From: an uncultured Bacteroidaceae bacterium
Lineage (GTDB): Bacteria; Bacillota; Clostridia; Christensenellales; CAG-917
NCBI GenBank assembly: GCA_964637515.1
Contig: CAZWUI010000001.1
Coordinates: 45,739 to 109,738, forward strand
Direction of reading: 5' to 3'
DNA length: 64,000 bases
The notes beneath the pieces were generated by a model. The model saw nothing but the letters and a program-made list of their open reading frames with translations, searched no databases and was not told where the DNA came from. A program made the translations under genes and the position numbers. How positions within the stretch are numbered: the stretch's first letter is position 1; each line of letters starts with the position of its first letter. This document shows positions 4,120 to 35,007 of this stretch, piece after piece.

Positions 4120-4130
4120 ATTTACCTCCG

Positions 4131-5189: not shown

Positions 5190-5190
5190 A

Positions 5191-6315: not shown

Positions 6316-6382
6316 AGCATCCTCCAAATTATTTTCTAAATTCTATTATATCATTCCTATTCGATTATTTCAAGAGAGTTGC

Positions 6383-7426: not shown

Positions 7427-7460
7427 ATCCGCCGCCGAAAATTAGTTTGATTATAAGTTA

Positions 7461-7484
7461 GTGGAGACGCTTTCGCGTCTCCAC
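7461..7484 (-). terminator. perfect 10-bp hairpin with GAAA tetraloop 20 nt after the giant-gene stop (terminator or processing/stabiliser hairpin)
   Basis: Minus-strand reading is gtggagacgc-GAAA-gcgtctccac. It is followed by taacTTATAATc rather than a U-tract, so termination may be partial. The TATAAT (7450-7455) could serve the AEC gene. Confidence 0.5.
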
Positions 7485-7503
7485 TTGCTTATTGAGTTGT
7501 TTT

Positions 7504-13500: not shown

Positions 13501-16500
13501 GTAGGTGACCGAGCCGTCAGTCTTTGCGACTCCACTGACCTTGGCGTATCTGTCGCCGTCCTTGGTGAAGAGCGGCCATACGCTTTCGGGGCCGTTAAAT
13601 GCGGTGATATCCTCTGCGGTTGCATTGACGTAGGTCACGCCTGCGATATATGCAGGAATGAGCTTGTAGATGTTGCCGTCGCTGTTGGTGATTGCTTCGC
13701 CTGCGGAGTTGTTGCCGAGCGTAACCTTGTTGCCGTTCTTGTAAGAGATTGCGTAGAGTATATCTCCGTTCTTATCGGTGAGAGGCACGCCGAAGGTCAA
13801 GTTGCCGTTGACGAAACTGAGTCTTGCAAGGTCGGGCAGGTCGACGTTCTGCTTGTTCTTGGAATTGGTCATATCAATTGCAAGAGTCTTCGCAGAGTAA
13901 CTGTTGCCGCTCTTGACGTAACCCTTGATTTCGGTGAGTGCGTACGCGGAAGTCACGTAGACGGGGATTGCGTAGACGACGACGTTGAGTGCGTAGCCGT
14001 AGACGTAACCTGCAAGGTATCTTCCGTCGCTTTCGAGAGTTGCTGCGGCGAAGTCAACCGAGCTTGCGTCCCAAGTGATGAACGTACCGCCCATATAGTC
14101 TTTGTCGCTCATATCGGTGACGCCTGCTGCAGAAGTAAATCCGTTGAGCGTCCAAGTGACGTCTGCTTTTTGCGGGAAGTAGTTCTTATTCTCGAGATAG
14201 GTTTCATTGAGAATGATACTCTTTCCGCCCGCCGTACCTTCTCTGGTCGCAGGATCGGTGATGACGATTTCGGTGGGTGCTTCCACTTCGCCGTCCATGA
14301 GTGTTGCGTTTTCGCCTTCGAGGAAGCCGAGCATTGCAGTATTAATGGACGAGTTGCTATGTGACAACGGGGTTATTCTGAGTGCGAGATAATCCCATCC
14401 GTCGGGACCGCCGTTTTCTCCTTCTTCTCCGACTTTGCCCAATGCGCCGTTATTCTCCGTGACCGTTCCGGTATACGTGTAGGTTTGGCCGGTGGAGATG
14501 CCCGACGTATTTCTTGCATAGGTCTTAACCGTTGCACCCGGATTGACCTTTTCTGCGTTGACGTAGAGTTCGATTGCTTGGATGCCTCTGTACATCGTCT
14601 TATCGTTGCCAAGTGCGTAGTCGCCGTTCTTCGGCGCAAGGTCGATATAGATGTTCGCGGTAGGATCGCATGAGAAGCTGTTTGCGAAAGGCAACGGCAA
14701 GATACCGGCGATAAGGTGACCGAGGTTTTCGAGCGTATCCGCCGCAACGGAGCCTGCCAAGGAGTTGATGTCGATACCGCCGGCGAGCGCAGGAAGCATA
14801 TCTTTGATCAAATATTGATAGATATACACAGGAATACTACGCACGTAAGGTTCGAGCAAGTCAACTCTTTCTTTCGTGGTCTTTTTGCCGTCGAGTTCTC
14901 GGAACAAATTGTAGATTATGTTCTTGCCGTTTCCGCCCAAGGTGTAATCACCGATACCTTGTCCTCTTCCTTTGTTCAAGCCGAGTTTGTTGATATCTGC
15001 AAAGTATCTGGTGTTGTTTGCGTTTGCGTTGACGTCTGCCGCGAAGAGTCCGAGCAAGATGACGTTGATCATGATCATCAATTCGTTGAATGCATCTTTG
15101 CCGAAGGTTATCTTCAAGGAGATATAACGCGTGTCGTCGGATGCGGACGAATCGAGCGCTTTCATTCCGCTATAGTACGGAATATATCCGTTGCTGTTGA
15201 AGAGATTGACTTCGAGTTTCTTGATGAGACCGGTCAAATCCGCGGAGTACGAGTAATTGCTGTAGTCGACGTCGGACGACGTTGCTTCGTTTGCAGGATA
15301 TGCGTAAGTGCCGTTGTCGCCGTCTTCGTGACTCGTCAAATTGATCATCGAACCGTAGGGGTTGAGAGTTGCATCCGCAGTTCCTGCGATTGCGATACCG
15401 CCGACGGTGTCGTTGATGAGGTCGTTCAACAAGCCGGAGGACAAGTCGACGTCTTTGATGAAGATATTGAAGTTGTTGATTGCAACGCCTGCGTTAAGGT
15501 TCGTGCCACTGCCTGCGTGTTTCCACGGGTGGTTGACGAGCAAGCTTGCATAGAGTTTGAACGGGTTGTTACCGCCGCCCCACGTCTTGACTTGTCTGGA
15601 GAGTGCAAGTTCTGCGTGAGTGGTGTTGTAGTAGGACATGACTTTGGTTTCACTGCTTAACCAAGAAACGCTACTGCTCCAACCGGTGTCTGCCATCCAA
15701 ACCTTTCTGTCGATATCAATCTTGAGTGCAGGATTGATGTTGTCGAGCAAGTTGTTGATGAGTGCGGAAGTGCCTGCCGTACCCGAGTAGGTCAAACCTG
15801 CGTAGCCGTATTCGACTTCGCCGATCTTGTCTTGGACGTTGATCTTGTTCTTGCCGATTTCGATGCTGAGATCTTTGATTTCGAGAGCGAGCATCGTGCC
15901 TACGCTATCGAGAACTGCGGTTACGCCGAGTTTTTCGATACCGGTGCGGAAGTCGTACAAGAATTCAACGGATGCGGACTGCAACGGCATTGCGTTGAGA
16001 TCGATTCCGCTACCCGACAAGTCGAGTCCGAGAATGCCGAGGAGTGCGCTGATGAAGTTCATGTCGATATTGAGAGCAAGACGACCTTCTTCAACGTCGA
16101 TATTGAGAGCGAGTTTGCTGTTTACGCCCGCACTGCTCGTCGCTTCGGTGGACAAGGAATCGGAGGATGCGCCCGCAGCGTTGTATTCATAGTTCTCTGC
16201 GTATTTTTGTTTTGCGCCGAGAATGCCTGCAAAGCCTTGGAACTTGATCTTGCCGAGACCGAGACCGCTTGCGTCGATATAGAGTGCATCGTTGATTGCG
16301 GTGCCGACCATTTCGGTGGTGAGTTCGTAGATATTGCCTGCTTTCTGGAGTCTGGACGAACCGAGATAGTAGACAGACAAGAATTTCTCACTCATCAATT
16401 CACCAATGGTAATGTCGAGTGCTATATCACTATAAAGGATACCCGAGATACCGTACATGAGAATTGCGCCGAGATTGATATCCGCCGAGAGTGCGATGTC

Positions 16501-19500
16501 GATCGTGAGCGGACGTTTCGGGAAGTTGAGTTGAATGTCCGCCATTGTGAACTTGTACGCACCGTTCTTATCTTTTTGATAAGTGCCGTCCTCAAGTTTC
16601 GTGTAACGAGTTCCTTCGAAGCCCGATTCCGCTTCGGTGAACGTGCCGAGCAACGACGTACCTTCAAGGAGTCCGCCAAGGAGGTCGATAACCCATGCGA
16701 TGAAGGAGTTTTCATAGCCTGTTTCGCCCTTCTTCAAGCCTGCGGAAGTGATGGTCATGCTGATGGTGGTGCTCAAGCTAATTGTGGACAGACCGATTTC
16801 GCCGGTTTCAACGTTGTACGCTTCTGCATAAGGAATGTAGTACGCGCCGTTCAAGCTTTGTTCGTAGTGTTCTTCTACGTACATATATGCGCCGTTTTCT
16901 GCGGTGTCGTAAGTGCCGTCCGCGCGTCTGGTGTAACGTTGTCCATCGTATTCGTCGTCGGTAATTTCAACGTATCCGCCTGCGACCTTGTTGTATCTCT
17001 TTGCAGATTGCCAAGTTTCGTCCGCTTCGGTGACTGCGTTGTATTCTTTGAACAGATTGTCAACGGCGTAGCCCTTCGTGATATGGCGGTCGAGTCCGAG
17101 TTCGACGACGTCAAGGGATGCGTAGAAGCCTTCACTGAACTTCGCGGACAAGCTGAACACGAAATCTCTGCTATCAGAATGATAGTAGGTCGTGGTTGCC
17201 GAGAGAGTGTCGCCGTTATATACGGTGTAAGTGTCGCCGTTCTTCACGTAGACGGTGCCTGCGAACTTGCCTTGGTTGAACAGAGCAATATCGTTTGCAC
17301 TCATTTCGATGAAGGTGTTGGGCACGTAGCCGTAGCTTTCGATGAGAATGTCGCCGAGGTTCGGGACAAGGTCTTTGAGTTCTTTACCTTGACGTTCGTA
17401 GATCTTGTTTGCGACTGCGTTGATGACTGCCATGGACAAGCCGATCGAGAAGTATTGCGGGTGGATCAACGCTTCGAGATATGCGTAGTCGTGGAGATCC
17501 ATTCCGCCTGCGGTTTCGGAGTTTGCCGCAAGTGCGTCGCTTGCATCCGCACTGCCCGCTTCGGTCGTGCCGAGTACGCTACCGAGTGCGCCTTCGATGA
17601 GTTCACTGAGTCCGAGTCCGCTCAAGTACAACTTCGCACTTTCGCCGAGCAAGTGGCTTGCATCGATGTAGACGTTGTCGCCGTAGAGATATGCTGCAAG
17701 GATAGGTTCGGTGTTGAGGATTCCGTTGTCGTCGTATTGCAAGATTTCGAGCATGACTTGCATTGCACTGAAATCGGTGAAGTCAAGGAATGCACTGAGA
17801 TTGATACGTGCAGACGGATAATCCTTGTTGCCGAGGTTGTTGGTTATGTTGATATTGAGGTCGGATCCGGAGAGATCGCTTTCGGGATTGATGAGTCCGA
17901 GAACGAGGTCAAGGATTTCGCCGAGTTCAACGACGTTGTTGGAGCCGTCGGCAAGTTTCGCACCGCCGTAGTAGGACAGGTCGATACCGATGCTCAAATT
18001 CAACGAAGATTTCTTGATGTCCGCATAGTCGGTGACCGCCATACCGTCTTCGTCAAGGTAGGTATGCGTGCCGTCCGCGTTCATTCTGACGTGGTCTTTT
18101 CCGACGTTCATCGTTTCTTGGTTTGCCCAGAGTCCGAGACCGTGGAGTTTGATTTGGAGTGCGAGATCGCCGATTGCGATATAGTCGCCCGCCGTCGTAA
18201 CGTTGTAAGTGTTCGTCGTGGTTGCGTTGAACGGGCTTGCGCCGAGTCTGTTGTAGGTTGCAATCAACGTGTACTTCGTCGTGCCGTCGGTGACGATTGC
18301 GCCGTTTGCGTTGAGTTTTTCGTATGCGCTATCCGATTCGGTGATGACCATGTACGCGCCCATACCGTATGCGTTGACCGCGAAGGTATTGTTGCTCGTC
18401 GCAGAATCGAACACCTTGGTGAACTTGTATTCACCGTTTTCGTCGATACCCGTGAAGTTGTAGCGGTCGCCCGTCCAAGAGGACACCCAATCACCTTCGG
18501 TGAAGTCACCGTGTGCGGGAGTTGCCGCCGCACCGTATGCGTAGTTTGCAAGTGCGTATTCTTCGGTTTCAAGAAGTACGTATTGTCCGCTTTCGGATAC
18601 GCTGTAAGTGCCGTCCGAATTCTTTTGATAGGTTGCGCCCGTCCAGTTGATTGCGTGCGTGTCTCTCAAATCGTCAAGAGTTACCCACGATTCCATGCCT
18701 GCAACGAAGCCAAGGTTGATGAGGATGCTGGGTGCGCCACCGCCAAGGTCTAAAACAAGACCGCTGGTGTTAATATCGGTGGTTTGCGTGAGTTTGGGCA
18801 GATAATCGGTGACGTCCGCAAGGTCTGCGACGAGCATACCGACGAGGTCGCCGATAAGGCTATCGTTAAGACCGATTGCGACGATGTCGTTCGCGACGAG
18901 AATTTGTCCGATGATCATACCGATGATATTCCAGACGCTTTCGCCCACGAGGTCGCCGATAAGTCCCATATTTGCTTCGTCCGCACTTGCCTTTGCCGCA
19001 CTTGCTTCAAACGCCGCACTATCAGAGCCAAGGAGTCCGCCGAGATCGAGTCCTTCGAGTTTGAGTTTGCCGAAGAAGTCGCCCATGCCGACGATGTCGT
19101 TCATATCTTCGAGGTTGAGATAGAGATTGAGTTTTCCGCCGACGATTTGCGCCCAGAGTTCGGCGATTGCGGTGTTAAATTCGCCCGCTGCGTCCGAGCC
19201 GTGGAAGTTGGTGTCGTATTCAATTCTGATATACGCTTCAAGGCCGTTGAGTGCATCCATGAGAGATCCGCCGTTGACAATGTAGTTGACAAGGTTTTGG
19301 ATGTTCAGACGTGCTTTGATGTCGATGCCTGCGCCGATCGTGCTTTCGAATGCGTTGTTTCTCCAGCTCATTGACGCGAGAATAAATTCAAAGTAATCGT
19401 ACAGGTCGGTCGAGATGAACTTGGTCATCTGTTCGGTCCAGTTGATGACGTCGCTGAGTTTGAGAGAGAGATCGAGAGAGAGATCGATTTCCGCACTTTC

Positions 19501-28500: not shown

Positions 28501-31500
28501 TGCAAGGTCGAGTTTGTAAGGATTGAATCCGATACGGATATAGCTTTCGGCCGCATTGAGTGCGATGAAGTTCGTCGCAAGGTCTGCCGAGCCGTAGTTG
28601 CCGTCTTTGCTTTCGACGTAAGATACGCTTTCGTCTGCGCCCACTATTCTATTGAAACGCGCGCCCGTGTACGTACCCGCTTCGGTTGCGGTGAGTGCAA
28701 CGTAGTTGTAAGACACTCTGTAAGTGCCGCTTTCGCTTTCCACGTAGTTGCCGTCAACGAGTTCGTATCTGGTGCCTTCATAGCTTGCGTCCGCAATGAC
28801 GTAGCTTGCTTCGCGTCTATAAGTGCCTGCGGTGGAAGAATAGTACTTGCCGTTGATTCTTTCAAATCTTTCACCGGTGTAAGTGCCGATTTCTTCCGCG
28901 GTAAGTTCACGATACGCCATATCGGGACTGAGAAGTTCGATGACGGTTGCGATGAGTCCGCTTGCAAGATAGACGGTGATGCTTTCGCTGTTTGCATTGA
29001 GTCCGCCGAGTGCTCCACCGAGAATATTAACGAGAGTGCCGAGAATATCGCTACCGCCGCTTTCTTCGGTGGTTTCACCTTCCGCCGCCGCGAGTGCAGC
29101 AGAACCCGAACCGCTTTCTTCGGAAGATCCGCCGATGAGTGCGCCAAGGTTGAAGTCCGCGATTGCAATGTGCAAATCGTCGACTATATCCATGTTTCCG
29201 TCTATGTAAAGCGTGCCCGTGGAAAGGCCGGTGGGTTGAGAAGGATCGTCGCAAAGGAGAGTGATTGCAAGTGCTCTCGTGGTCGCTCCGCTTGCGATTG
29301 CCGCTTCGTCGTAAACACCGCTATATATTTCGATAGCAATATCAGAGTGAGAGAGAATGTAGTTAATATCCGCTATATCTGCGGGGTTGAATCTGAGTTT
29401 CACCGCGATACGGAAGCCGAGATATTCAGCCACGTCGTAAGGAATGTCGAAAGCAATCATAAGTCTTTCGAGAAGTCCCGCAACGCCTTCGTTCAGAGAG
29501 TCTTCGGACAAGAACAAGGAAACCCAATCGCCGATAGGCCAGTTGTCTGCATTGCTATACGCCTTGAGATTGATAGTTCCGCAGAGTTCGAGATAGACTT
29601 GTTCAAGGCTGATTTGCATATTGCCATTCTCATCGTAGCCAAGCAAGCTGATGAGAGTGTAGGCGTCGTCACCGCTGGTGGTAAGTCCCGCCAAAGGTTC
29701 GTCCGCAGAAGATCCGAACGGATGAATGGGTTGTGCAGTGTGATCAATGCTGATACCGGGGTGTTTGATCGTGACGTCCAAACTGCCGGTTACGTTGTTG
29801 TTTGCGTCTTTGACTTGGAGTCCAATTCCGAGGAGATTGTCGCTTGCAAGGTCGGACCAAGCAAGGTCGAGTGCAACGTCAACAATTGCTGCGTTGATGC
29901 CCACTTTGTCCCAAAGGAGTTCCGCAAGACCTTGCAACAACTTGACGCTGAGTGCGCCGTCGGAGATGACGAGAGATGCAAGAAGTGCAATGTCGAATCT
30001 CGTCGGATCGTAAGTCATATCGTCGCTTGCGACGAGTGCCGCACTGCCTGCAGTCGTAGGATTGACTTCCGCATTTTCACCAACGATAAGGCTCATGATG
30101 AGTTCCATCAAATCAAGGTCGATTGCGACTTTTTCAATGCCGAAGTTCTCCGCATCGAGATAAACTTTTCCGCCCGCATAGTAGATGCCAAGGATAAGAG
30201 TGTCGCTCTCCCCTGCCTTCGTCGCATTCTTGACGAGTTCGATGAGAATTTGAGAATTGTTGCCTTCGGTGTAAACCTTATTTGCACCGAGCAAGTAGTC
30301 GATGAGAGGTTTGAGATCGAGTCCCGCTTCGATTTTGAGGGTGTAGTCGAGTGCTATGTCTTCTTCAAACACGAGATTTCCGCCTGCGCTCAAAGGAGTG
30401 TTGCCTGCGTTCATCGTCGCATCGAGACCGAGTTCGAGACCGAGATACACGTTGGGAGTTTCAAAAATATTCACCCAATCGTAGTCGGGAGGAGTGAGCA
30501 TTGAGCTTGCGGGCACTTCGTTGAGTCCGAGATTGAGTTCGCCAAGCGCAATGGAAAGTTCGAAACCGTTGCCGATTCCGAGATATACGAGAAGTTCTAG
30601 TTCGGTGAGATTGAGTCCGTCTGCGAGAGTGATACGGACGCCACCGTGAGTCTTTTCGTCGATAAGGTTGCTGGTCACGTCGGTGCCGACGAGCTTGTAG
30701 TAGGTATTGCCTTCGACAAGTGCGCCTTCAACGATGGTGATAACGCCGTGTTCGTCTGCTTCGAAAACGGTTTCGGTGAACGTGCCTTGATTGTAGCCCA
30801 CGATTTCTTCGGGAGTGAGTTCCGCAAAGTCTTCAAGACTGGTGGTCACGCCGAGAAGTTCAAACACCTTGGAGATAAGGTTGTTGACAAGTGCGATTTC
30901 AAGGTAGTTGTTGCCGAGAGTTACACCGCTAAGGAGTCCCGCAACGACGGAGATGATTTGACTGGTGTCTGCGCCTTCGGTGCCTTCACCTTCGGTGGTT
31001 TCGCCTTCCGCCGCAAGTGCTTCGGATGCGCCTTCACTGCCGCCCGAGATAAGTCCCATTATGACGTCCGCGGGGATTGCAATGTCCATACCACCGAGAA
31101 CGTCGTCTCTGGTGTGGAGATAAATAGTGCCGCCCGAGAGCCAAATATCAATGCCGTTTTCGGATTTGTCGGTGTTGCCGAGCCCGATATGGAAATCGGA
31201 TTCGAGAAGTCCTGCTATATTGAACGCGCCGTTTTCGTCAAGGAGTTTGCCGAGATCGAGACCGACGTTCGCTTCGATGACGAGTTTGCTCGTTTGATCG
31301 AAGGTGTTCGCAAACGCTACGAACGCTTGAATAAGCAAGCTGTTGTTGCTTGCGATTTCAAGGTTGCCGAGTTGTCCTTCGAGTGCGTAAAGACCAATGG
31401 TTGCACTCAAAGATACGTATACGGTGTCGAGAGCAGACAAGAGTGCATCGACGAGAGCACCGCCGACGTCGTCCGTACCCGAAATGATTTCTACAATGTC

Positions 31501-33519
31501 AAAGGTGATATAGTTCGCCTTATCCGCACTGATTGCGTTGAGTTTTGCATCGTACGCTTCTTTGTTTGCAATAGAACCAAACCTGAGATCAAGGCCGACT
31601 TTGACACCGACGACGGTTTCGTCTTTGCCGAGTCCGAGGGTTATGTCGAGATTCTTATTCTCCGCAAATCCTTCGTTGAAGTATTCGACTTTCGCTACGG
31701 TGACGGGGATTCTTCCGCCGTTGTAGTTGCCGTCCGCATCTTTGAATATCATCGTCCACAAATAGTCGAGGACTGCTTGGGTGATGACGATATTGAGATT
31801 GGTGATATTGAAAATCGTACCGCTCTTGATGAGAGTGGTGTTTTCGAGAATTGCGCCGATGAGTCCGAACAAATCGGTGATTTCGCCGTCTTCCGCCGCA
31901 GAAGGAGCGGAGGTTACGATGATTTCACCGTTTGCCATCTTGTCGCGAACTTCATACATTGCGGCGGCAAATTCTTCGTTTGCCATCGCTTCGGTGAGCG
32001 CTTCGGAAGAAGAAGTCGAGTTGAGAACACTGCCGATAAGTCCGCCGAGAAGTTCGTTGAGATTGATGTTGGGAATGACGATTTTCCCGGTGCCGACAAG
32101 ACCGTTCAGGTCAATATACAACGCTTCGTCCGCACCGATATAGTATGCGCCGAGTCTGAGAACGTTGTTGTCGCCGAGAAGTTCGATAGCTGCGGTGGTT
32201 TCCGCAGCGTTGCGAGTGTTGATATCCGCTTGGAGATGCAGATACAACGGATAATTATTGTTTCCGTCGAGATCTATCGCAAGGTCCCACAATGGGCTGT
32301 CTTCGCCGATAAGTCCCGAGAGAAGTCCCGACAAGAGAGTCCCGAATTCTTGGGATATTCCGCCGAGAGTCATGGTTTTGTCTCTGGTGTTCAGAAGAAG
32401 ATTAAGAGTGATGTCGAAGTTGAGAAGAGAGTATTCTGCAAGTTCGTCAAGGTTTATTCCGCGCTCGTTGAGTCTTTCTTTAACACTGATCGCACTTTCA
32501 GTGAAACCGCCTCTGAGAGCAAGCTTTTCAACGCCGAGAGAAATCTCGACTTCGTTCTTGATTTGACCGTATTCCTCGTCACCGTCTTCGGTGGAGTCAA
32601 ACTTGACGTTGATGTCCGCAGACATTCCGACGAGTTCGCCGTCCTTGATGGTGGACACGAGATCGACGCCGAATTCGGAGATCAATCTCATCTTGTTGAG
32701 GTCCATACCAAGCGCCGTATTCACCAAGTCGAATATAGCGTCAAGGTCGAAACTGAGGCTCAAGCCGAACGTTTCGAGGAGACTGAATATCGAAGAAGGA
32801 TCTTCGAACACGCCCAACAAAATATCAAGGCTCAAAGGCATCGTGAGGCGTTGTACGCCGCCGCCGAGATCTTCGAGGATGCCGACAGACAAAATCATAC
32901 CCAAGATACCCGAAACAGTCTTATCGTTGAGAAGTTCGACTATCGTAGAAGCAAGTGATTCGTCGCCGAGCAGTCCTGCAAGGAGATTTCCGACTTCGTC
33001 CGCAACCGCGGTCATGTTTATATCAGACGTCTTGACTGCATAACTGCCCGCTTTCAGCCCCGTCAAATCGAACACGATCGTCTCGTCAACATAATAAAAG
33101 CCCATAAGACACTCCGTATCAGAGGTGCCTTTGGGCGTTTTGAGAAGTTCTACGAGAATTTCGGTATCCTTGTCGTCTTCGGCAATTGCGCCGGCAAGTC
33201 TAATCTTGAAATCGTTGCCGGTGTTGTCTTTGACGTAGTTCAAGTCGATGATCAAGTCGAAGTCAACGATGGGTCTGACGCCGTTGCCTGCGGCGAGTGC
33301 CGCTTGACTGAACAGCGAGAGAGCATCCTTGCTTCCGATCATGACCTTGCCCGATTCGGGGATGTCCTGCGGTTTATCTTGCTCGCCGGGGTTTACGGTA
33401 ACACCGTCGGGGTTGATCGGATCGATAGTGGGAGCTTCTTCGCTTTGGTTACATGCGACGAAACACGCTATCAAACAGACGGCGAGAAGAATGACTAGTG
33501 CGATTTTTACTTTCTTCAT
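7504..33519 (-). CDS. giant (8,671 aa) predicted lipoprotein; modular surface protein of unknown family
   Basis: Uninterrupted 26,016-nt ORF with SD GGAGG 6 nt before ATG 33519 and a signal peptide plus lipobox. Twelve linker-delimited mega-repeats are followed by an Ig-like repeat array. Only about 10 Cys occur after the signal peptide, and there is no C-terminal LPXTG or TM. Coding status is high confidence; function is unknown. Confidence 0.9.
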   Translation of the reverse strand: MKKVKIALVILLAVCLIACFVACNQSEEAPTIDPINPDGVTVNPGEQDKPQDIPESGKVMIGSKDALSLFSQAALAAGNGVRPIVDFDLIIDLNYVKDNTGNDFKIRLAGAIAEDDKDTEILVELLKTPKGTSDTECLMGFYYVDETIVFDLTGLKAGSYAVKTSDINMTAVADEVGNLLAGLLGDESLASTIVELLNDKTVSGILGMILSVGILEDLGGGVQRLTMPLSLDILLGVFEDPSSIFSLLETFGLSLSFDLDAIFDLVNTALGMDLNKMRLISEFGVDLVSTIKDGELVGMSADINVKFDSTEDGDEEYGQIKNEVEISLGVEKLALRGGFTESAISVKERLNERGINLDELAEYSLLNFDITLNLLLNTRDKTMTLGGISQEFGTLLSGLLSGLIGEDSPLWDLAIDLDGNNNYPLYLHLQADINTRNAAETTAAIELLGDNNVLRLGAYYIGADEALYIDLNGLVGTGKIVIPNINLNELLGGLIGSVLNSTSSSEALTEAMANEEFAAAMYEVRDKMANGEIIVTSAPSAAEDGEITDLFGLIGAILENTTLIKSGTIFNITNLNIVITQAVLDYLWTMIFKDADGNYNGGRIPVTVAKVEYFNEGFAENKNLDITLGLGKDETVVGVKVGLDLRFGSIANKEAYDAKLNAISADKANYITFDIVEIISGTDDVGGALVDALLSALDTVYVSLSATIGLYALEGQLGNLEIASNNSLLIQAFVAFANTFDQTSKLVIEANVGLDLGKLLDENGAFNIAGLLESDFHIGLGNTDKSENGIDIWLSGGTIYLHTRDDVLGGMDIAIPADVIMGLISGGSEGASEALAAEGETTEGEGTEGADTSQIISVVAGLLSGVTLGNNYLEIALVNNLISKVFELLGVTTSLEDFAELTPEEIVGYNQGTFTETVFEADEHGVITIVEGALVEGNTYYKLVGTDVTSNLIDEKTHGGVRITLADGLNLTELELLVYLGIGNGFELSIALGELNLGLNEVPASSMLTPPDYDWVNIFETPNVYLGLELGLDATMNAGNTPLSAGGNLVFEEDIALDYTLKIEAGLDLKPLIDYLLGANKVYTEGNNSQILIELVKNATKAGESDTLILGIYYAGGKVYLDAENFGIEKVAIDLDLMELIMSLIVGENAEVNPTTAGSAALVASDDMTYDPTRFDIALLASLVISDGALSVKLLQGLAELLWDKVGINAAIVDVALDLAWSDLASDNLLGIGLQVKDANNNVTGSLDVTIKHPGISIDHTAQPIHPFGSSADEPLAGLTTSGDDAYTLISLLGYDENGNMQISLEQVYLELCGTINLKAYSNADNWPIGDWVSLFLSEDSLNEGVAGLLERLMIAFDIPYDVAEYLGFRIAVKLRFNPADIADINYILSHSDIAIEIYSGVYDEAAIASGATTRALAITLLCDDPSQPTGLSTGTLYIDGNMDIVDDLHIAIADFNLGALIGGSSEESGSGSAALAAAEGETTEESGGSDILGTLVNILGGALGGLNANSESITVYLASGLIATVIELLSPDMAYRELTAEEIGTYTGERFERINGKYYSSTAGTYRREASYVIADASYEGTRYELVDGNYVESESGTYRVSYNYVALTATEAGTYTGARFNRIVGADESVSYVESKDGNYGSADLATNFIALNAAESYIRIGFNPYKLDLAVGIDPFNVGLTLSGLSIGFSDANSVVSKYYAINPDEYISKDNFDVIALELALELKLELLDTQDQPNKELPVNDLVSAFIADFLLSAGIEIEKDIVLDAELYLGANLNLENPIETEIVLELRNLIKGENILGIYLFESTIMIDMGILSDEDVLIEDTFLLEYLVGMIRNLLGEETSGSEAMAAEEEGRAVSAADALEIVLGIANENISLVISQKVILTLIAFIVDLVSAEGTTGNIGESLDRLPDLGLELSAGIDFENSQVAIEIASTLLNLGVYVKQPCVTAGKEFASVSATIENALKQPQHSGNYRVLTDDEKVEGNANYLDPAHAYIYKDGAYALNEEGTYVEGTTYYRYTGEAAENRFNKYRDSKIVSFSLELVLEYSLNPTFTLVDEEAASLYPDDERYSKRTSDGRYVQDPNGLYIKDPIELGDLIDAILSLDAIKNAISGLEEGTLKNIVSALLERLGLNIYLNDPLDDDIVVKIFGAIDLEKLGFDSILDAQFDDFNFDLDTILSALEVGVQLVMNKGEKNEVMIGIYLMDGQLYVDLGELGGPRLTLGLDFIIDLIGGGSSSAAVAAADGELGILDYINMIIKRIIFRCSTVYRNGEYWYDNWDSLDILVNSTFITGLVSAITGQNIDLGMLNLDDTESGLFLTWKDADLDDKLSLGIRLSTLTGINVALKLGVGFDITLADTDYTRPLSELEKSDFIDITDYVENIMSMINGTASGENAGTQNIYLGLNLSLYFDSNDIDTLELGGLVENYIRDMVINAKTGSAFHDGVAVRVGVKLDLNSLDVSSLIGGDMNAFLANSDLTTLEVALEILDTDNEGNVTVDANGNYNVKGGIYLYNGNLYLNGVELFNVTDGYSYIPNFVDMLLELLGGDSTNAAGQGEALAATDEGIDPAGENPVAGDYTVERTAIIELILSDVATQIVITKSIISLLVGALLPDLGSLDEIFNKLEVSLDFETGKYAYVDFAKDTAASIKDVNDGDAYYVVSATENAEGRYYIESINLNGKAENSRSYYIFAETDAEIPAGATRYDVTFAKADDTTPEDVWDTAYYKHSTYVSGGTTNDSYILIMPTSERYSYYDEIVWKENKTHGRYATIVSLTETEYVLDDAGTYKKVGDAYVLIGAGESYDGKRYSLQAKAEHFDTERYTVYVRNGINFEPVDALEIAQNGYDISESYYIYAGGYTKVDTFADRYFGYVQDKEGTFYRQPDYFTKLNQFGIGLNITANAIDIGLKLNGLDIGFGASDSLMPSYILEEKSRDGKEYVALAPFYEATVSLNLSLELEFGITEGEIDFGMIFAQVLGNLEGVKIDIPSTAKGYSSAHFRLDVGIMLDFSELLNSEIKLELINISETGAENIWLAAYYVQNVFYIDIPFLGMPKLSITSTIVSGLIEQYLGGIFDNAYADTELPEGDSSSDAFAAAEVNANNVDVLLLINRRALSVSIANRFLRTIIEMLIEGLDLSDYIPDDLIFGADVNLDINDGLNVEIGATVSIEGDRYVALADGVTPVVKDEANKIEGDYYFTQNNDGNFYRLDDGSYRELAPNETVSQERRYARNDYEGGREEGSVVYRRQAGYAANGNGYDAELSLLVGVRNVSLDFTTEHDYTLSAEELSEYEEITELDRITLTEVIDITTSFKKDADIDLSEVLEMLFPDVDPDSLKAQISAVSDMNGDLDRKMELILNVEIKFAALVNYFRQFDVNVDFSDLDEDISIIDLFNVIINAFGSEQLNIGDLLSFINVSAILNSTAMDKQEHDSSIAKSETRTLLGIYMIGGEFEKLTASETNPASDEYIAPEERYSHYFVAKSGDYYYDSADGEYKLVTANTDLMLYGNKRYSYDSSYFYQNNYGTYKRVKGGLYLDLSYFSIPSVYINSYSLRDIASNLLPGVFGGESESDALAAGSTATATAELPLLSDDIAAYVTAFVWGIRITNTYVRAIVQADYINALLKLLLGEDSLQFNYNFEKQPYVQINTDRSTYLYKEHADTTEAERRQSDFRFSYEKNNATGTYFAVESAGKTVYYLKSEMADRLTEAEIADYEAQVTAGTKFYYTLATYEAYIKIVNSGSDYYQLLTKATPFEKSSAEKDLTTGDYKYYLRKDATSATDVYYHVGDGQYERATADSPVEVYYVFEQIAYNEMLVSAKEEGVRKPFLSVMLYLWEYELGINIGFPEFGAREQEYITPAEYETAYGEAAPEGAKYFKVDDYLYTFIGDVNTSDQWIEGMPNGSQDHGVDVYDNYLDNVRYMYYHGEYYPILAEDLYVYADGKYTNVKDYFTTVDYANGQMIDFTAGTSFGRSVEEGYNFYLQLEITELGYSPRIKLESDTLYKREKYRDVYVRNTADNREKYGVGELTDADLFVRATGKNIIEKASNAYETVQVDGTGEYVWDYANEVFVLYASAGAELASMPRYTAEQINYYVYDEWNRTYVKLADYLADNFDSNDWTNDFVATKEAVTSMSLYDGSKAISYVDTDDMFYISLTIRGGIYTTGYYDYVSVNEYLDILNATGGSYTLADLNNSASEVYVAPEHRYTMYQGGYKQLAAGDGLSANDYVLYSTGVETNVAEVLGGLLGDLDGIALQVLESFSGEVLFEIKIGLSFRLDFLPEIKMNIFDIDLAIDAWRRENDAAAGADGTLTHMLGLYYNRDEDTGVAGLNLDLEWLLGEGAKLSVDLSQYSVEELVAGLLDGSISLGASSDALASADGDRLVNAYANPEISGIFVNLYTRTLALKVTKGFVNLLLGLLGLDLDEDILPNFTVGLDFKLSPYSIGIDLALFNEDGTKGVLDLLIKLQLFNGTEDSSVIDFGTVESFNERNTTYQNSYDTDPDIADNYAFYYANFTRDDSTAFADAYIKVGNAKSANGIDVVKVDDKYYVKATTVYANEAAFNNAVANGVWVFKRCETKFVRVLDEKLYDEDGNVWDSSVKGALYKYVGSGVAGQFAEIDDLALVDGVSVKVEEGGVYYKPTSDFTNYSRIMSLNLGDLLGGADLDIESLLGDLESAEIDLSLDLSLKLSDVINWTEQMTKFISTDLYDYFEFILASMSWRNNAFESTIGAGIDIKARLNIQNLVNYIVNGGSLMDALNGLEAYIRIEYDTNFHGSDAAGEFNTAIAELWAQIVGGKLNLYLNLEDMNDIVGMGDFFGKLKLEGLDLGGLLGSDSAAFEASAAKASADEANMGLIGDLVGESVWNIIGMIIGQILVANDIVAIGLNDSLIGDLVGMLVADLADVTDYLPKLTQTTDINTSGLVLDLGGGAPSILINLGFVAGMESWVTLDDLRDTHAINWTGATYQKNSDGTYSVSESGQYVLLETEEYALANYAYGAAATPAHGDFTEGDWVSSWTGDRYNFTGIDENGEYKFTKVFDSATSNNTFAVNAYGMGAYMVITESDSAYEKLNANGAIVTDGTTKYTLIATYNRLGASPFNATTTNTYNVTTAGDYIAIGDLALQIKLHGLGLWANQETMNVGKDHVRMNADGTHTYLDEDGMAVTDYADIKKSSLNLSIGIDLSYYGGAKLADGSNNVVELGEILDLVLGLINPESDLSGSDLNINITNNLGNKDYPSARINLSAFLDFTDFSAMQVMLEILQYDDNGILNTEPILAAYLYGDNVYIDASHLLGESAKLYLSGLGLSELIEGALGSVLGTTEAGSADASDALAANSETAGGMDLHDYAYLEALIHPQYFSIGLSMAVINAVANKIYERQGKELKDLVPNLGDILIESYGYVPNTFIEMSANDIALFNQGKFAGTVYVKNGDTYTVYNGDTLSATTTYYHSDSRDFVFSLSAKFSEGFYASLDVVELGLDRHITKGYAVDNLFKEYNAVTEADETWQSAKRYNKVAGGYVEITDDEYDGQRYTRRADGTYDTAENGAYMYVEEHYEQSLNGAYYIPYAEAYNVETGEIGLSTISLSTTISMTITSAGLKKGETGYENSFIAWVIDLLGGLLEGTSLLGTFTEAESGFEGTRYTKLEDGTYQKDKNGAYKFTMADIQLNFPKRPLTIDIALSADINLGAILMYGISGILYSDIALDITIGELMSEKFLSVYYLGSSRLQKAGNIYELTTEMVGTAINDALYIDASGLGLGKIKFQGFAGILGAKQKYAENYEYNAAGASSDSLSTEATSSAGVNSKLALNIDVEEGRLALNIDMNFISALLGILGLDLSGSGIDLNAMPLQSASVEFLYDFRTGIEKLGVTAVLDSVGTMLALEIKDLSIEIGKNKINVQDKIGEVEYGYAGLTYSGTAGTSALINNLLDNINPALKIDIDRKVWMADTGWSSSVSWLSSETKVMSYYNTTHAELALSRQVKTWGGGNNPFKLYASLLVNHPWKHAGSGTNLNAGVAINNFNIFIKDVDLSSGLLNDLINDTVGGIAIAGTADATLNPYGSMINLTSHEDGDNGTYAYPANEATSSDVDYSNYSYSADLTGLIKKLEVNLFNSNGYIPYYSGMKALDSSASDDTRYISLKITFGKDAFNELMIMINVILLGLFAADVNANANNTRYFADINKLGLNKGRGQGIGDYTLGGNGKNIIYNLFRELDGKKTTKERVDLLEPYVRSIPVYIYQYLIKDMLPALAGGIDINSLAGSVAADTLENLGHLIAGILPLPFANSFSCDPTANIYIDLAPKNGDYALGNDKTMYRGIQAIELYVNAEKVNPGATVKTYARNTSGISTGQTYTYTGTVTENNGALGKVGEEGENGGPDGWDYLALRITPLSHSNSSINTAMLGFLEGENATLMDGEVEAPTEIVITDPATREGTAGGKSIILNETYLENKNYFPQKADVTWTLNGFTSAAGVTDMSDKDYMGGTFITWDASSVDFAAATLESDGRYLAGYVYGYALNVVVYAIPVYVTSAYALTEIKGYVKSGNSYSAKTLAIDMTNSKNKQNVDLPDLARLSFVNGNLTFGVPLTDKNGDILYAISYKNGNKVTLGNNSAGEAITNSDGNIYKLIPAYIAGVTYVNATAEDITAFNGPESVWPLFTKDGDRYAKVSGVAKTDGSVTYYKVQTETVTTAGVDTQYAKLDYTKLPSGKAFPAGWIKWNTDDFKYNWSTGTIDLGFTYQWGFSSEIKDTVSIALAGNEIGSLTLFTRGDNGHTTKSMTTLDAFGLASFLNASNHYSIAEYVKGFTTVSGKYTAGSSSSSFKDFSVKWDLSALEARLKELAVVGEDGEITGYDYYKGIDVTVTAYVGGNEFKYVTGYDEEGNPTYGFVGSGSTSSNFASAGYIAQAVPVRIYIAGREFEGLENELTFDVYANDEITAESFGNTFKVNFKGIDKATNVTIGDVLSLDAPYYKNGDTFVKATDVQSNEYSFAGYSGKDLYGKFTFGNSVSGLQTTYVKINMSSMTAVQTLVKVDVADVFNPEWYEVSAYESLNVQFSERGTTAKTMYPDWSTVKYFSNSTYTRSIDNIYSGGTIYATVEAVCKDAEGNVIGNYVDENGESVSQTIRLKLSVPVKKITSYKFFYDGAIQGGKDIYGSGLINTIDESVLADKSKYVASSYAAQYIDSASGVEYNVMPYVYVSDPSAYFKVGEWGDYRNGTSVLVTYTIGGVEYEEIVFVNAWNIGALAFTAQGSVRKVSFSVGNQTIETTLNVPSMSVSSIALDLNNANGGTLRFFGGQTTATDVRFMNGELTSHSFEYNVKKGWSLPTYATLNNNLGINEVSAVGAIAWIDYSAPGMIADDFIDDGEGNMVYRSDENGKYVYRSFTLYNKEDFVYPNRDAFRVKIYLVGDSGSVDDLAANVRSATINGFTENNNYYSVFSDWMLGNFNSATVTFEGGAIDENIPVVWNNYARPTDEEISAGSFTRIAYVGSDLARITKTFTVYTNYVIEIEEGVNAIINGYTLSADNFFNGLPTTATAVIGSEESSNRRMTVGLVWNVTYDKDGNITSGLNEDGTVNVDLMRGQDRITTIALTLTVEGVAIDSIAIEGDVNIDPFGVDNTMFASGSTVTVNTVGGGTASAVATYELPADFFTNTAAYFGKDIALDVTLTYPGGSEVKQITAHVLDRTIKKVTDPAYRSITIDPFYNDTFREGGLNLPLTLGVTLKDGSTNFNLVPEWPDDSIISSKGYFNANYKVAFTYYYEDANGTYGIADLTDDDIDNPRYVSIEGIEDYVGVRYSKGATQYVTMPLMVLTRAAEKAEFVFDGFEKQSENSKSSYSSHSVTYGSKDANLGNVIDVVYDNDTNLPEEVVFYNAYSFGNPSLPKYLDVTFDGTGEVRRYYLETEGFTQFFGKIDVTENVSNDVILHVYPTEAKEFEIYLNGKSALKVKVTIKKTDVTRFNSDVASSKLSTGDLNYTGFEVYTENTDAASAYNTANYADTFTFYPDGKFISVKEYEDGEYASVKWLGDSSKYLYKLLGNGTVSANGEVATANGNRIGTPYYYQYNVKGRTYTALNTTVISDKENTYVFMFTVRQTLNATWDTSDTVVSVVGGTSYVEAIVTSPVTIVEGVANNATATVRVPIEVNDATISTVNIANSDFVAGADASHAAKNSDGVYEFTFDPYTTPDVFEQIFSASANGTYKLENGKYVELSAEELVQYDGQKYELVGYKYFPQSMTVVTETGTSVNKEVTWNFGASKVSYEGGTFVIRATVKGDGVKDQVVVAHLVINPRKVTSLAAGNTTLTGNTGFYVTSGTQTYINPYEYLSKDVKLPETLTVNVTKGDGTTATETKTFGAADGYSLEWNFSKFNPTYEGGIIYLIAELTGPDGTAQEFEIPFLVQRMYANALTTVFKLDEERVASATITSARYSAAPYTATVTNSVASNYTISANNTASYSIPQAYKVTFTISNPVVTNGKVTSWTTTTEGTGWASHANGSKNSKVFTYVMVSMPGGFSLTADLLKSGMSTAKNATIQLGTGERITIPFTVSGTTVTTAPSYTGTALNTKIGGVPVVWYGTAVVYDITGAYLTHHSVMFASDTGTYALSTPSGRKVVYYLYACVGTPVDSASRVLDTTIATATKGSISVGGSTINVVSVGQEIPNGQAVYGNGTVNSNNPYVITVNGR
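7507..14290 (-). repeat. giant protein C-terminal ~2,260 aa: array of roughly 20 Ig-like (beta-sandwich-type) repeats
   Basis: At least 14 recurrences of a (V/L)-x-W-(N/D/T) strand motif (ADVTWTLNG, FSVKWDLSA, IPVVWNNYA, VGLVWNVTY, KEVTWNFGASKVSYEGG, YSLEWNFSKFNPTYEGG, VPVVWYGTA ...). Each is followed about 60-100 aa later by an alternating V-x-V-x-V closing strand. Fold assignment is inference. Confidence 0.5.
14291..16125 (-). other. giant protein aa ~5799-6410: Trp-rich non-linker region, probably a 13th degenerate module / junction domain
   Basis: Distinct composition (KVWMADTGWSSSVSWLSS, KTWGGGNNPFKLYASLLVNHPWKH). It still ends with a module-type ANIYIDLAPKNGDY element at about 14625-14680, but has no ALAA linker. 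Borders are approximate. Confidence 0.4.
16126..16182 (-). repeat. giant protein inter-module linker L12 (aa 5780-5798, most degenerate)
   Basis: NAAGASSDSLSTEATSSAG, preceded by NDALYIDASGLGLGKIKFQGFAGILG and followed by KLALNIDVEEGRLALNIDMNFISALLGILG. Confidence 0.55.
17503..17571 (-). repeat. giant protein inter-module linker L11 (aa 5317-5339)
   Basis: GTTEAGSADASDALAANSETAGG, preceded by LAAYLYGDNVYIDASHLLG..LIEGALGSVL. Confidence 0.8.
18970..19029 (-). repeat. giant protein inter-module linker L10 (aa 4831-4850)
   Basis: GSDSAAFEASAAKASADEAN, preceded by GGKLNLYLNLEDMND..LEGLDLGGLL. Confidence 0.7.
20380..20418 (-). repeat. giant protein inter-module linker L9 (aa 4368-4380)
   Basis: GASSDALASADGD, preceded by MLGLYYNRDEDTGVAGLNLDL..LVAGLLDGSISL. 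Confidence 0.75.
22753..22818 (-). repeat. giant protein inter-module linker L8 (aa 3568-3589)
   Basis: GGESESDALAAGSTATATAELP, preceded by VKGGLYLDLSYFSIPSVYI..LLPGVF. Confidence 0.8.
24202..24264 (-). repeat. giant protein inter-module linker L7 (aa 3086-3106)
   Basis: ELPEGDSSSDAFAAAEVNANN, preceded by WLAAYYVQNVFYIDIPFLG..IEQYLGG. Confidence 0.7.
25777..25869 (-). repeat. giant protein inter-module linker L6 (aa 2551-2581)
   Basis: GGDSTNAAGQGEALAATDEGIDPAGENPVAG, preceded by GGIYLYNGNLYLNGVEL..MLLELL. Confidence 0.8.
26764..26808 (-). repeat. giant protein inter-module linker L5 (aa 2238-2252)
   Basis: GGGSSSAAVAAADGE, preceded by MIGIYLMDGQLYVDLGELGGPRLTLGLDFIIDLI. Confidence 0.75.
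27919..27990 (-). repeat. giant protein inter-module linker L4 (aa 1844-1867)
   Basis: GEETSGSEAMAAEEEGRAVSAADA, preceded by ILGIYLFESTIMIDMG..MIRNLL. Confidence 0.75.
29050..29127 (-). repeat. giant protein inter-module linker L3 (aa 1465-1490)
   Basis: SSEESGSGSAALAAAEGETTEESGGS, preceded by GTLYIDGNMDIV..NLGALIGG. It shares a 25-nt near-identical DNA stretch with L2 (gcggcggaaggYgaaaccaccgaag). Confidence 0.8.
30961..31038 (-). repeat. giant protein inter-module linker L2 (aa 828-853)
   Basis: SEGASEALAAEGETTEGEGTEGADTS, preceded by IWLSGGTIYLHTRDD..IMGLISGG. Confidence 0.8.
31960..32019 (-). repeat. giant protein inter-module linker L1 (aa 501-520)
   Basis: STSSSEALTEAMANEEFAAA, preceded by LGAYYIGADEALYIDLNGL..LLGGLIGSVLN. 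Confidence 0.7.
33283..33309 (-). repeat. giant protein linker-like motif L0 (aa 71-79)
   Basis: SQAALAAGN, a short copy of the ALAA core immediately before the first module (VRPIVDFDLIIDL...). Confidence 0.5.
33451..33519 (-). other. signal peptide with lipobox of the giant protein
   Basis: MKKVKIALVILLAVCLIACFVAC|NQSEE has a basic n-region and a hydrophobic core. Two candidate lipoboxes are present: LIAC (Cys19) and FVAC (Cys23). Other lipoproteins in the window use LVAC|D and LVGC|D. Confidence 0.75.
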
Positions 33520-33581: not shown

Positions 33582-33610
33582 ATTTTAGCGTGTGATACAA
33601 GAAAAGTCAA
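33582..33610 (-). promoter_or_regulatory. near-consensus sigma-A type promoter of the giant gene
   Basis: Minus strand reads TTGACT (33610-33605), a 17-nt spacer, then TAAAAT (33587-33582). This lies about 62 nt upstream of ATG 33519. The leader contains a small hairpin (acgcg-catt-cgcgt) and then GGAGG. Confidence 0.6.
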
Positions 33611-33874: not shown

Positions 33875-34732
33875 TTAATCAAAAAATTCGGGGGTGTCGA
33901 TTATCTCGAATTTTTGTACTAACGACATTTCGCTTTTGCCGTCGTTGCACTCGCCGAGCCATTCTACTTCGAGAATGTGTTGGTTGGTATAGGTCTCAAA
34001 ATTGCATCCGAAATCGCTATATTTTCCGTCTGCGGAAGGAGGTGAAACCGTCCATTTTAGAGTCTTGTTTCCGACGGAATAATACGCTCTGCCCTTTTTG
34101 GAATACAGACCGAGTTTCAATGCTTCCGGCTTGCTTGTTTGACTTACTTCAAGCAAATCGTGAGTGAGTTTTACCCTCTCGTCACGCAAGTCGTTATATG
34201 GCCAAATGACGATATTTTGGGAGGGATTCAAGTCGTCCACGGGGTCATTGAGCGGGACGTGCAATACGCCGTTTTTTGCAACGACGGTCAACGCCCAAAC
34301 GAAGAACTTTTGACCAGAAAAACGACTTAAAACATCGTTTTTGACACTTAAACCGCCGTTTTCGTCCATTTTGACGGTTATCTTATACGAGAATTTTTTG
34401 GAGGCTTCGGAGTGGAAAACTCCGCCGAAACCGTCGTCGTCTATCTCGTGATGGACGGGGTAATTGTCGGGGGTGTAAGTCGCCATATCTTCGGGGGACT
34501 TCCACACGCGATGACCGCCGTAGAGATACCAAGTTTCACCGGGTTTATACTCCTCGTCGAAGTAAGGACCGCTCTTGTTTACGTTGCGCTCGATATCCTC
34601 GTTCATAAAGTTGAAATCGGGAGTGCCGTAGTAGATGATACGCGGCCCCAAATCAACGGTCACGAGAGCGATGAGACCGCCCCTTTCAAACTTCGCGCAT
34701 TTGCCGTAGTTTTTGTAATTTACGTATTGCAT
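33875..34732 (-). CDS. galactose-mutarotase-like / DUF4380-like beta-sandwich protein (function uncertain)
   Basis: 285 aa with no signal peptide, beginning MQYVNYKNYGKCAKFERGGLIALVTVDLGPRIIYYG..GGHRVWKSPED.., which resembles DUF4380/aldose-epimerase-like proteins. Start ATG 34732 with SD AAAGGTGG; track start 34747 rejected. Confidence 0.45.
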   Translation of the reverse strand: MQYVNYKNYGKCAKFERGGLIALVTVDLGPRIIYYGTPDFNFMNEDIERNVNKSGPYFDEEYKPGETWYLYGGHRVWKSPEDMATYTPDNYPVHHEIDDDGFGGVFHSEASKKFSYKITVKMDENGGLSVKNDVLSRFSGQKFFVWALTVVAKNGVLHVPLNDPVDDLNPSQNIVIWPYNDLRDERVKLTHDLLEVSQTSKPEALKLGLYSKKGRAYYSVGNKTLKWTVSPPSADGKYSDFGCNFETYTNQHILEVEWLGECNDGKSEMSLVQKFEIIDTPEFFD

Positions 34733-35007
34733 AATACCACCTTTCATCGCAGGGGGTGCGACGGCTATGATTTTCTGACATTAGGAAAACTCTTGCATTT
34801 TCTCACGAGCGCATTTCAAAAAAGCAGCAATTCTCGCCGTTTTCAATTCACTATTGTAAATTGCTACACGGCTTGTCGCAAAAATAGTGCGCTTATGGGT
34901 TTTGCATTCAAAACACTTTCGCCCTTAATTCTTTTGCGAAAAGCGTTTTAGCTTATATCTCTTTTTGTAGCAATCGTTTTGCTCAAAAGCTTTTTGGTAG
35001 TTTTGTT

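Follow-up and report, generated by a model that had tools for sequence, protein, structure and literature searches.

A giant predicted lipoprotein of uncultured gut Clostridia with an ancient tandem array of a new repeat unit

We describe a giant gene that forms a single unbroken minus-strand open reading frame (ORF) of 8,671 codons plus a stop in a 64,000-nucleotide stretch of contig CAZWUI010000001.1 (positions 45,739-109,738; assembly GCA_964637515.1), which we call the window and on which all coordinates are based. Its predicted product, a protein of 8,671 amino acids (aa) and ~0.9 MDa, begins with a lipoprotein signal peptide, and profile comparison indicates that 14 homologous units, all beta-rich, make up an ancient tandem array over aa 63-5768. 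A first, sequence-only reading of this DNA had noticed linkers that divide a protein into modules over positions 16126-33309, a span that corresponds to aa 71-5798 of the single ORF, and had proposed the ancient serial duplication of a very large unit. Our analysis supports that proposal, and revises the number and the size of the units. The protein family is restricted to one lineage, the gut Clostridia/Christensenellaceae-labelled metagenome-assembled genomes (MAGs).

The relationship between the units is faint by direct comparison. Paralogous units are 16-24% identical, pairwise BLAST between modules is weakly positive for five pairs (E 6e-7 to 3e-3), and at the DNA level, as already noticed in the first reading, there is no repeat beyond three copies of GGTATCTATCTC, which encodes GIYL. 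Such weak similarity favors the view that only the low-complexity linkers recur, by compositional convergence, and that the segments between them are unrelated. We reject this view, to which we leave next to no probability, on the strength of profile methods. Orthologous ORFs from 21 loci were aligned, cut at the linkers into module profiles and compared by hhalign, a self-comparison that the sequence-only reading had itself named as the test that could refute the duplication. The inter-linker segments are significantly similar: modules M2 and M3 align with a probability of 98.7% over 278 columns (E 1.7e-16), M3 and M6 with 97.8% (E 1e-12), M0-M2 and M2-M6 with 96%, and many further pairs exceed 90%. 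A hidden Markov model (HMM) built from the orthologues of one module (aa 1473-1849) matches 8 places in the protein and none in a locally shuffled control, and 3 iterations extend it to 15 profile matches that tile aa 63-5768, compared with 0-2 in shuffles. These 15 matches represent 14 units, because the unit at aa 3573-4370 is split by an insertion. The units also share the order of their elements and a GIYL..LYID closing element.

The core of the unit profile comprises about 276 positions (~270 aa), and Tyr-rich insertions lengthen individual units, in the largest case to 800 aa. The mega-repeats of 313-800 aa that had been proposed are thus real as duplicated units, but not as units of that size: lean relatives of the protein have units of 230-320 aa that lack the variable islands, which implies that the modules of the window protein are the core plus insertions. 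The lean forms put the duplicated unit itself at about 250-320 aa. Likewise, the 637-aa spacing that had been taken for one module contains two units, since hhalign resolves two in the 641-aa module M2 and a linker lies between them at aa 1159. Each unit opens with a helix and two short strands (the 'restart'), continues with an optional Tyr-rich insertion of varying length and a meander of long amphipathic strands, and ends with the GIYL..LYID strand pair and an amphipathic helix. This shared order, which the first reading had described, recurs in both the alignments and the predicted secondary structure; no internal sub-repeat was found within a unit. The closing element, first written as IYL..LYIDL, is found by a stringent pattern 22-41 aa upstream of 9 of the 12 linker cores, and is visible in alignments at every boundary, followed by the amphipathic helix. 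Within the islands, a hairpin-like motif DG.Y(4-8)G.Y matches 11 times against 0.7 expected; a second candidate island motif, LT.EE...Y.G.RY, was dropped with 3 occurrences only. Past the last linker we looked for one more N-terminal half-unit, and no match was significant.

Relatives of the protein place the array in time. A scan of one genome per GTDB species recovered 26 loci, nearly all from uncultured gut MAGs; one locus is 95% identical, and the close relatives show identities of 95%, 79% and 69%. Among the names that these MAGs bear are Clostridia, Clostridiales, Christensenella sp., Firmicutes bacterium CAG:238 and CAG:475, and a few are implausibly labelled Bacteroides. The MAGs of five loci (L001-L003, L008 and L026) are titled 'uncultured Bacteroidaceae' or 'Bacteroides sp.'. 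Judged by gene content and closest relatives they are clostridial, which makes these labels look wrong. In a relative of roughly 30% identity, the best match of each unit is the unit at the same position, with 5-30 times the score of the runner-up (more distant relatives are too diverged for single-sequence unit assignment). This positional orthology implies that the array predates that divergence, and together with the profile comparisons it supports the ancient serial duplication that had been suggested. The giant protein is 28-41% identical across relatives, compared with 50-75% for the products of adjacent genes, and these identities indicate that it evolves markedly faster than its neighbors.

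In the 20 loci with enough flanking sequence, all from independent assemblies, the orthologous ORF runs without a stop for 4,700 aa or more. At one locus, L018 (CP091723.1, a complete 1.65-Mb MAG chromosome from long reads), the longest open stretch of the orthologue is 2,645 aa and a neighboring GH127-like gene is split as well, which suggests frameshift errors of assembly rather than a pseudogene. Word-indexed homology searches returned 3 + 3 proteins, even with a 21-sequence profile. When 1.84 billion cluster representatives were searched exhaustively by HMMER with a 26-row profile of the unit, only 100 proteins matched at E ≤ 0.001, and all those inspected belong to this lipoprotein family; the longer ones, of which the largest measures 7,924 aa, contain as many as 17 matched stretches. 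Some 500 copies of the unit are present in 99 proteins. Full-length family members measure 5.6-8.7 thousand aa, the relatives among them 5.6-7.9 thousand aa with 13-16 profile matches. Where public names are given they read 'hypothetical protein', and one distant relative is named for a carboxypeptidase-regulatory-like domain.

The units are joined by short Ser/Gly/acidic loops around a core with the consensus [ED]-A-h-[ATV]-A-[AS]-[DE]. Twelve such linkers had been listed in the first reading, and a strict pattern recovers 11 of these 12 sites (Table 1). The remaining one, listed at aa 5780, is degenerate (SDSLSTE), and a core that had been overlooked, TAGSAALVASDD at aa 1159, appears when Val is tolerated at one position. 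An AALAAG at aa 73, which had been mentioned as a linker-like site, proves to be an ordinary conserved segment in the orthologue alignment. In all, the pattern matches 12 times between aa 505 and 5327 and nowhere in the C-terminal 2,880 aa. Over 1,000 shuffled versions of the protein it matches 0.5 times on average and 5 times at most.

Conservation within the linkers is concentrated on the core. Across 9 linkers in 18 distant orthologues, two Ala of the core are identical to those of the window protein in 94% and 75% of cases, compared with an overall identity of 32% and with 8-30% in the Ser/Gly/acidic flanks, whose length varies. Among the 99 family proteins, G-S-S-[ED]-A-[LVI]-[ATS]-[ATS]-A-[DE] occurs within 70 aa after 240 of 497 unit ends, compared with 9% of random windows, and the first Ala is kept in 96% of motif occurrences. 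The best-conserved Ala are spaced i and i+3 (Ala-x-x-Ala). This pattern of conservation indicates strong purifying selection on the core as a motif, beyond what a plain spacer would need. The linkers are predicted to be disordered, with a predicted local distance difference test (pLDDT) score of about 40 in the AlphaFold2 unit model. In one sub-clade they carry Cys-rich mini-insertions of the form C..H.D...DG.CD.CG or C.EH.D...(T)PDG.CD.CG, sometimes doubled (protein P0003, aa about 890-960 and 1560-1590; loci L006 and L017, at the linkers equivalent to window aa 1473 and 2243). These insertions look like small metal-binding knuckles, and that they are tolerated suggests that the linkers are permissive, exposed loops.

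Neither sequence nor structure searches connect the unit to a described family, in agreement with the first reading's remark that it knew of none. Pfam, NCBIfam and PHROGs returned no family above threshold for the whole 8,671 aa, no weak family recurred when 26 separate units were compared with Pfam at E up to 10, and a search of PDB sequences with the unit profile returned nothing. The module HMM, which tiles its own protein, likewise matches no Pfam or NCBIfam family. AlphaFold2 models one unit (aa 832-1155; 26 paralogous and orthologous rows) with a pLDDT of 69 and a predicted TM-score (pTM) of 0.52, and its C-terminal half exceeds a pLDDT of 85. The model runs from the disordered linker through a helix, two short strands, a second helix, a hairpin-rich island, the strand meander with strands of up to 14 residues, and the closing strands to a terminal helix. 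In Foldseek searches, the best match of the unit model in PDB has E 0.2 and TM <0.17, and across PDB and BFVD nothing falls below E 0.18; the weak top matches (TcdB, porins, vitellogenin) are not evidence. A model of three units (aa 832-1849; 13 rows; pLDDT 49) repeats the secondary-structure pattern in each unit, and was used for secondary structure alone and not for fold search. We found no description of this protein family in the literature.

The region beyond the array is of a different kind, non-repetitive and beta-rich. BLAST self-comparison shows no repeats in these C-terminal 2,880 aa, a PDB sequence search with the region returned nothing, and its sole domain signal is a Big_4 match at about aa 8219-8262 that lies below the cut-off (E 0.003). 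Closer family members share about 25-32% identity with it in their own C-termini, and a metagenome scan with a 3-sequence C-terminal alignment found 3 loci. In a distant member, the C-terminal part includes a CarboxypepD_reg domain and, below threshold, matches Big_1. These signs of beta-sandwich domains favor the surface-protein reading given below.

Signals around the gene suggest an independent unit for an exported protein. A promoter-like site, a GGAGG ribosome-binding site immediately 5' of the ATG at 33519, and a terminator-like hairpin 19 nucleotides past the stop codon indicate that the giant gene is apparently its own transcription unit. The hairpin was called on the plus strand, and since its stem is a perfect palindrome it would also form in the gene's own transcript. 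The N-terminal sequence MKKVKIALVILLAVCLIACFVAC, followed by N, has the positively charged n-region, the hydrophobic h-region and the lipobox ([LVI][ASTVI][GAS]-C) of a lipoprotein. Among 21 relatives longer than 5,000 aa, the lipobox pattern is present in 17 and a Cys stands at the equivalent place in 2 more; the remaining 2 have different starts, one of them being N-terminally truncated. We infer from these features that the protein would be exported and lipidated, with its N-terminus tethered to the outer face of the cell membrane. The protein is very acidic and nearly free of Cys (net charge -671; 9 Cys past the signal peptide), a composition that fits an extracellular protein.

We lean towards reading the giant protein as a long, fast-evolving, segmented fibre on the cell surface, of adhesin-like or envelope-scaffold kind, with an expected length of order 100 nm. 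In such a protein the unit array would form a cell-proximal stalk whose units are joined by the short, disordered Ser/Gly/acidic loops, and the variable islands and the C-terminal region would provide fast-evolving interaction surfaces. A tandem array of homologous domains is expected of the stalk in giant repeat adhesins, and is present here in 14 units. Several points weigh against this reading. The window protein has no above-threshold match to the known stalk or adhesive families (Ig-like Big_x, SdrD_B, Cadherin, FIVAR and others), and no LPXTG, SLH or other wall-anchoring motif. The adhesin role is a deduction, and the host envelope is assumed to be monoderm. The three-unit model, at its pLDDT, cannot tell beads on a string from one continuous structure. 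The first unit of the array is only a C-terminal half, a hint that the structural module might extend across the linker instead of ending there. Finally, the conservation of the linkers exceeds the needs of a flexible hinge, and a fibre does not account for it.

This last point could be explained if the linker core were a protease site and the giant protein a processed polyprotein, an alternative that we consider unlikely. About 12 cuts would yield fragments of 30-80 kDa that stay associated or form a surface layer, and the cuts could be made by a signal-peptidase-like activity of type I or by a surface protease dedicated to the task. Signal-peptidase sites follow the -3/-1 rule, and cutting of this type is suggested because [ATV]-A-[AS] followed by [DE] fits it. 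The motif lies in predicted disordered acidic loops, it is always preceded by an amphipathic hydrophobic helix, and it is conserved far beyond what a spacer needs. There is also precedent in the P97/P102-family adhesins of Mycoplasma hyopneumoniae, which are multiply cut in disordered regions. However, the giant gene has no protease gene next to it, or at least no conserved one. The motif is missing from about half of the unit junctions across the family and from the one that follows unit 0, and the spacing of the best-conserved Ala is not the classic A-x-A. It is conceivable, if rather doubtful, that the linker cores serve more broadly as processing or docking sites, and that a lipid-anchored precursor matures into about a dozen related subunits that build a lineage-specific envelope layer or fibre in these small-genome gut Clostridia, with a fold that has no solved relative.

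A third possibility, which we consider very improbable, is a conduit for lipids or other hydrophobic cargo, in which the amphipathic strands of the units line up as a continuous groove like that of AsmA/TamB/YhdP or VPS13 and the linkers are loops that cross the groove. The meander strands are indeed long and strongly amphipathic, alternating Leu/Val/Ile with Gly/Asp/Glu/Thr, the disordered loops fall at regular positions, and a half-unit stands at the start of the array, which would suit a single continuous structure. Yet AsmA, AsmA_2, TamB/DUF490, DUF3971, Chorein_N and others have no match to the whole protein or to the 26 units at E up to 10, Foldseek matches the unit model to no solved structure, and the unit lacks an internal repeat of ~5 strands. 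The Clostridia/Christensenellaceae-labelled hosts presumably have no outer membrane, and the protein is far longer than any gap on the scale of a periplasm.

The segmented surface protein that we favor would matter in several respects. A protein of 0.9 MDa with no annotated residue past its signal peptide is an unusually large blind spot, all the more so as its gene takes about 1.6% of a genome of roughly 1.65 Mb (the size of one complete related chromosome) and as 26 or more species-level lineages of uncultured gut Clostridia have conserved it. The protein probably dominates the cell surface, and if it does, it bears on attachment, phage interaction and host recognition of these widespread, uncultivated gut bacteria. 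The unit is a candidate new domain family whose fold has no detectable solved relative, and the linker motif is a possible site of cleavage, modification or docking.

Table 1. Features of the giant gene and its product in the window (aa numbering of the full-length protein)
Feature	Position	Strand	Basis and remarks
Giant gene	7504..33519	-	One unbroken ORF, 8,671 codons + stop
Promoter-like TTGACT-17-TAAAAT	33582..33610	-	Read directly; consensus match only
Lipoprotein signal peptide, aa 1-23	33451..33519	-	Lipobox FVAC, Cys23
Pro/Asp/Gln-rich tether, aa 24-62	33334..33450	-	Follows lipid anchor; from sequence, role putative
Unit 0, aa 63-190	32950..33333	-	Half-unit, profile positions 179-275 (closing half); no acidic linker after it
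Unit 1, aa 191-505	32005..32949	-	Iterated HMM
Linker core SEALTEA, aa 505	31987..32007	-	Pattern; only closest relatives have it
Unit 2, aa 535-827	31039..31917	-	Iterated HMM
Linker core SEALAAE, aa 832	31006..31026	-	Pattern, orthologues
Unit 3, aa 832-1155	30055..31026	-	Iterated HMM; modelled with AlphaFold2
Linker core SAALVAS, aa 1159	30025..30045	-	Relaxed pattern, orthologues
Unit 4, aa 1159-1466	29122..30045	-	Iterated HMM, hhalign; merged with unit 3 in the sequence-only reading
Linker core SAALAAA, aa 1473	29083..29103	-	Pattern, orthologues
Unit 5, aa 1473-1849	27973..29103	-	Iterated HMM; Tyr-rich island of about 110 aa
Linker core SEAMAAE, aa 1850	27952..27972	-	Pattern, orthologues
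Unit 6, aa 1850-2240	26800..27972	-	Iterated HMM
Linker core SAAVAAA, aa 2243	26773..26793	-	Pattern, orthologues
Unit 7, aa 2243-2559	25843..26793	-	Iterated HMM
Linker core GEALAAT, aa 2561	25819..25839	-	Pattern, orthologues
Unit 8, aa 2561-3082	24274..25839	-	Iterated HMM; island-expanded
Unit 9, aa 3083-3572	22804..24273	-	Iterated HMM; island-expanded
Linker core SDAFAAA, aa 3094	24220..24240	-	Pattern, orthologues
Linker core SDALAAG, aa 3573	22783..22803	-	Pattern, orthologues
Unit 10, aa 3573-4370	20410..22803	-	Profile halves 3573-3896 and 4042-4370; large Tyr-rich insertions split and lengthen it
Linker core SDALASA, aa 4371	20389..20409	-	Pattern, orthologues
Unit 11, aa 4371-4832	19024..20409	-	Iterated HMM
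Linker core SAAFEAS, aa 4834	19000..19020	-	Pattern, orthologues
Unit 12, aa 4840-5322	17554..19002	-	Iterated HMM
Unit 13, aa 5323-5768	16216..17553	-	Weakest profile match, E 6e-4
Linker core SDALAAN, aa 5327	17521..17541	-	Pattern
Degenerate final linker SDSLSTE, aa 5790	16132..16152	-	Boundary alignment; outside the strict pattern
C-terminal region, aa 5790-8671	7507..16152	-	Thr/Val/Ser/Asn-rich, without linkers
Terminator-like G+C-rich hairpin, 11-bp stem	7460..7485	.	Predicted

The giant gene also stands out in base composition, with a G+C content of 50-53% compared with 46-48% in its flanks. From window position 8000 to 32000 the GC skew is strong and uniform (plus strand, +0.06 to +0.19), and the AT skew is negative. 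Opposite the gene, on the plus strand of window 8080-32958, lie antisense 'shadow' ORFs of up to 1,550 aa (for example 22144-26796, 26881-30504, 15832-18753 and 8080-10920), and at locus L028 a 1,375-aa antisense ORF (6776-10903) lies opposite the orthologue. These shadow ORFs are most likely a by-product of codon usage and not genes, because C-ending codons leave few stops in the reverse complement.

The neighbors are ordinary chromosomal genes, for a methionyl-tRNA synthetase, an SPFH/zinc-ribbon pair, a Mem_trans carrier, a GH20 protein and an HGSNAT-like acyltransferase, and relatives keep the gene order on both sides. We considered these conserved neighbors as functional partners and rejected the idea, as the synteny reflects a general collinearity of these genomes. 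A gene for an HGSNAT/DUF1624-like membrane acyltransferase (37151-38095, plus strand) is the divergent upstream neighbor in 23 of the 26 loci. Its placement could be simple synteny, or it could reflect a functional connection, for instance through the acetylation of surface glycans. Between the acyltransferase gene and the giant gene, closer relatives of the window have two inserted genes, one for a 290-aa protein and the GH20 gene. The 290-aa protein encoded directly upstream in the window (33875-34747, minus strand) has no Pfam match and is 51-97% identical in 8 closer loci. Directly downstream (4131-7426, minus strand; 11475-14740 in L028/L029), genes for the Mem_trans carrier, the SPFH protein and a 352-aa zinc-ribbon protein follow in conserved order. 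The SPFH (Band_7_1) protein carries multiple C-terminal zinc ribbons, and in the loci where the giant protein shows 31% identity, this trio shows 51-71%.

Known systems resemble parts of this protein. RBG/AsmA-like proteins such as TamB, YhdP and VPS13 share with it a long amphipathic beta-meander array punctuated by helices and disordered loops; they differ in that the window protein has no sequence or structure match to them, no ~5-strand sub-repeat and a Clostridia-labelled host, and in that their anchor is an N-terminal transmembrane helix rather than a lipoprotein anchor. The P97/P102 adhesins of Mycoplasma hyopneumoniae are cut at S/T-X-F↓X-D/E motifs in disordered regions. Like them, the giant protein is a large, presumably surface-located protein with short conserved motifs in disordered acidic stretches at intervals of hundreds of residues, but its motif is [ED]-A-h-[ATV]-A-[AS]-[DE], there is no sequence relationship, and cleavage here is hypothetical.

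Giant adhesins and giant genes of other bacteria also resemble it. Ebh of Staphylococcus is a giant repetitive surface adhesin. Others are SiiE of Salmonella, MpIBP of Marinomonas and a 7,651-residue adhesin of Mobiluncus mulieris (PMC6272769, PMC4083281, PMC10619420). Giant genes of Omnitrophota and gut Oscillospiraceae/Clostridia encode proteins of over 10,000-85,000 aa, with RCC1, Listeria-Bacteroides repeat, YG-repeat, dockerin or SecA-like domains and many transmembrane segments (bioRxiv 10.1101/2023.11.21.568195). Like the window gene, these were recovered from metagenomes, some from mammalian gut Clostridia, and are largely unannotated, but none of their listed features occurs in the window protein. 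With the giant adhesins it shares a single, very large exported product, the largest in the genome, that is acidic, consists mostly of tandem beta-rich repeats, has a distinct terminal region and is presumed to reach away from the cell surface. The repeats of those adhesins are about 90-110 aa long, immunoglobulin (Ig)-like or helical, recognizable by Pfam and often nearly identical, whereas here they are ~270 aa (up to 800), 16-24% identical and without a database match; and where those adhesins rely on type I secretion or LPXTG anchoring, this protein has an N-terminal lipobox. The unit is thus a new repeat or domain family, and its array a new architecture within the known giant bacterial surface proteins.

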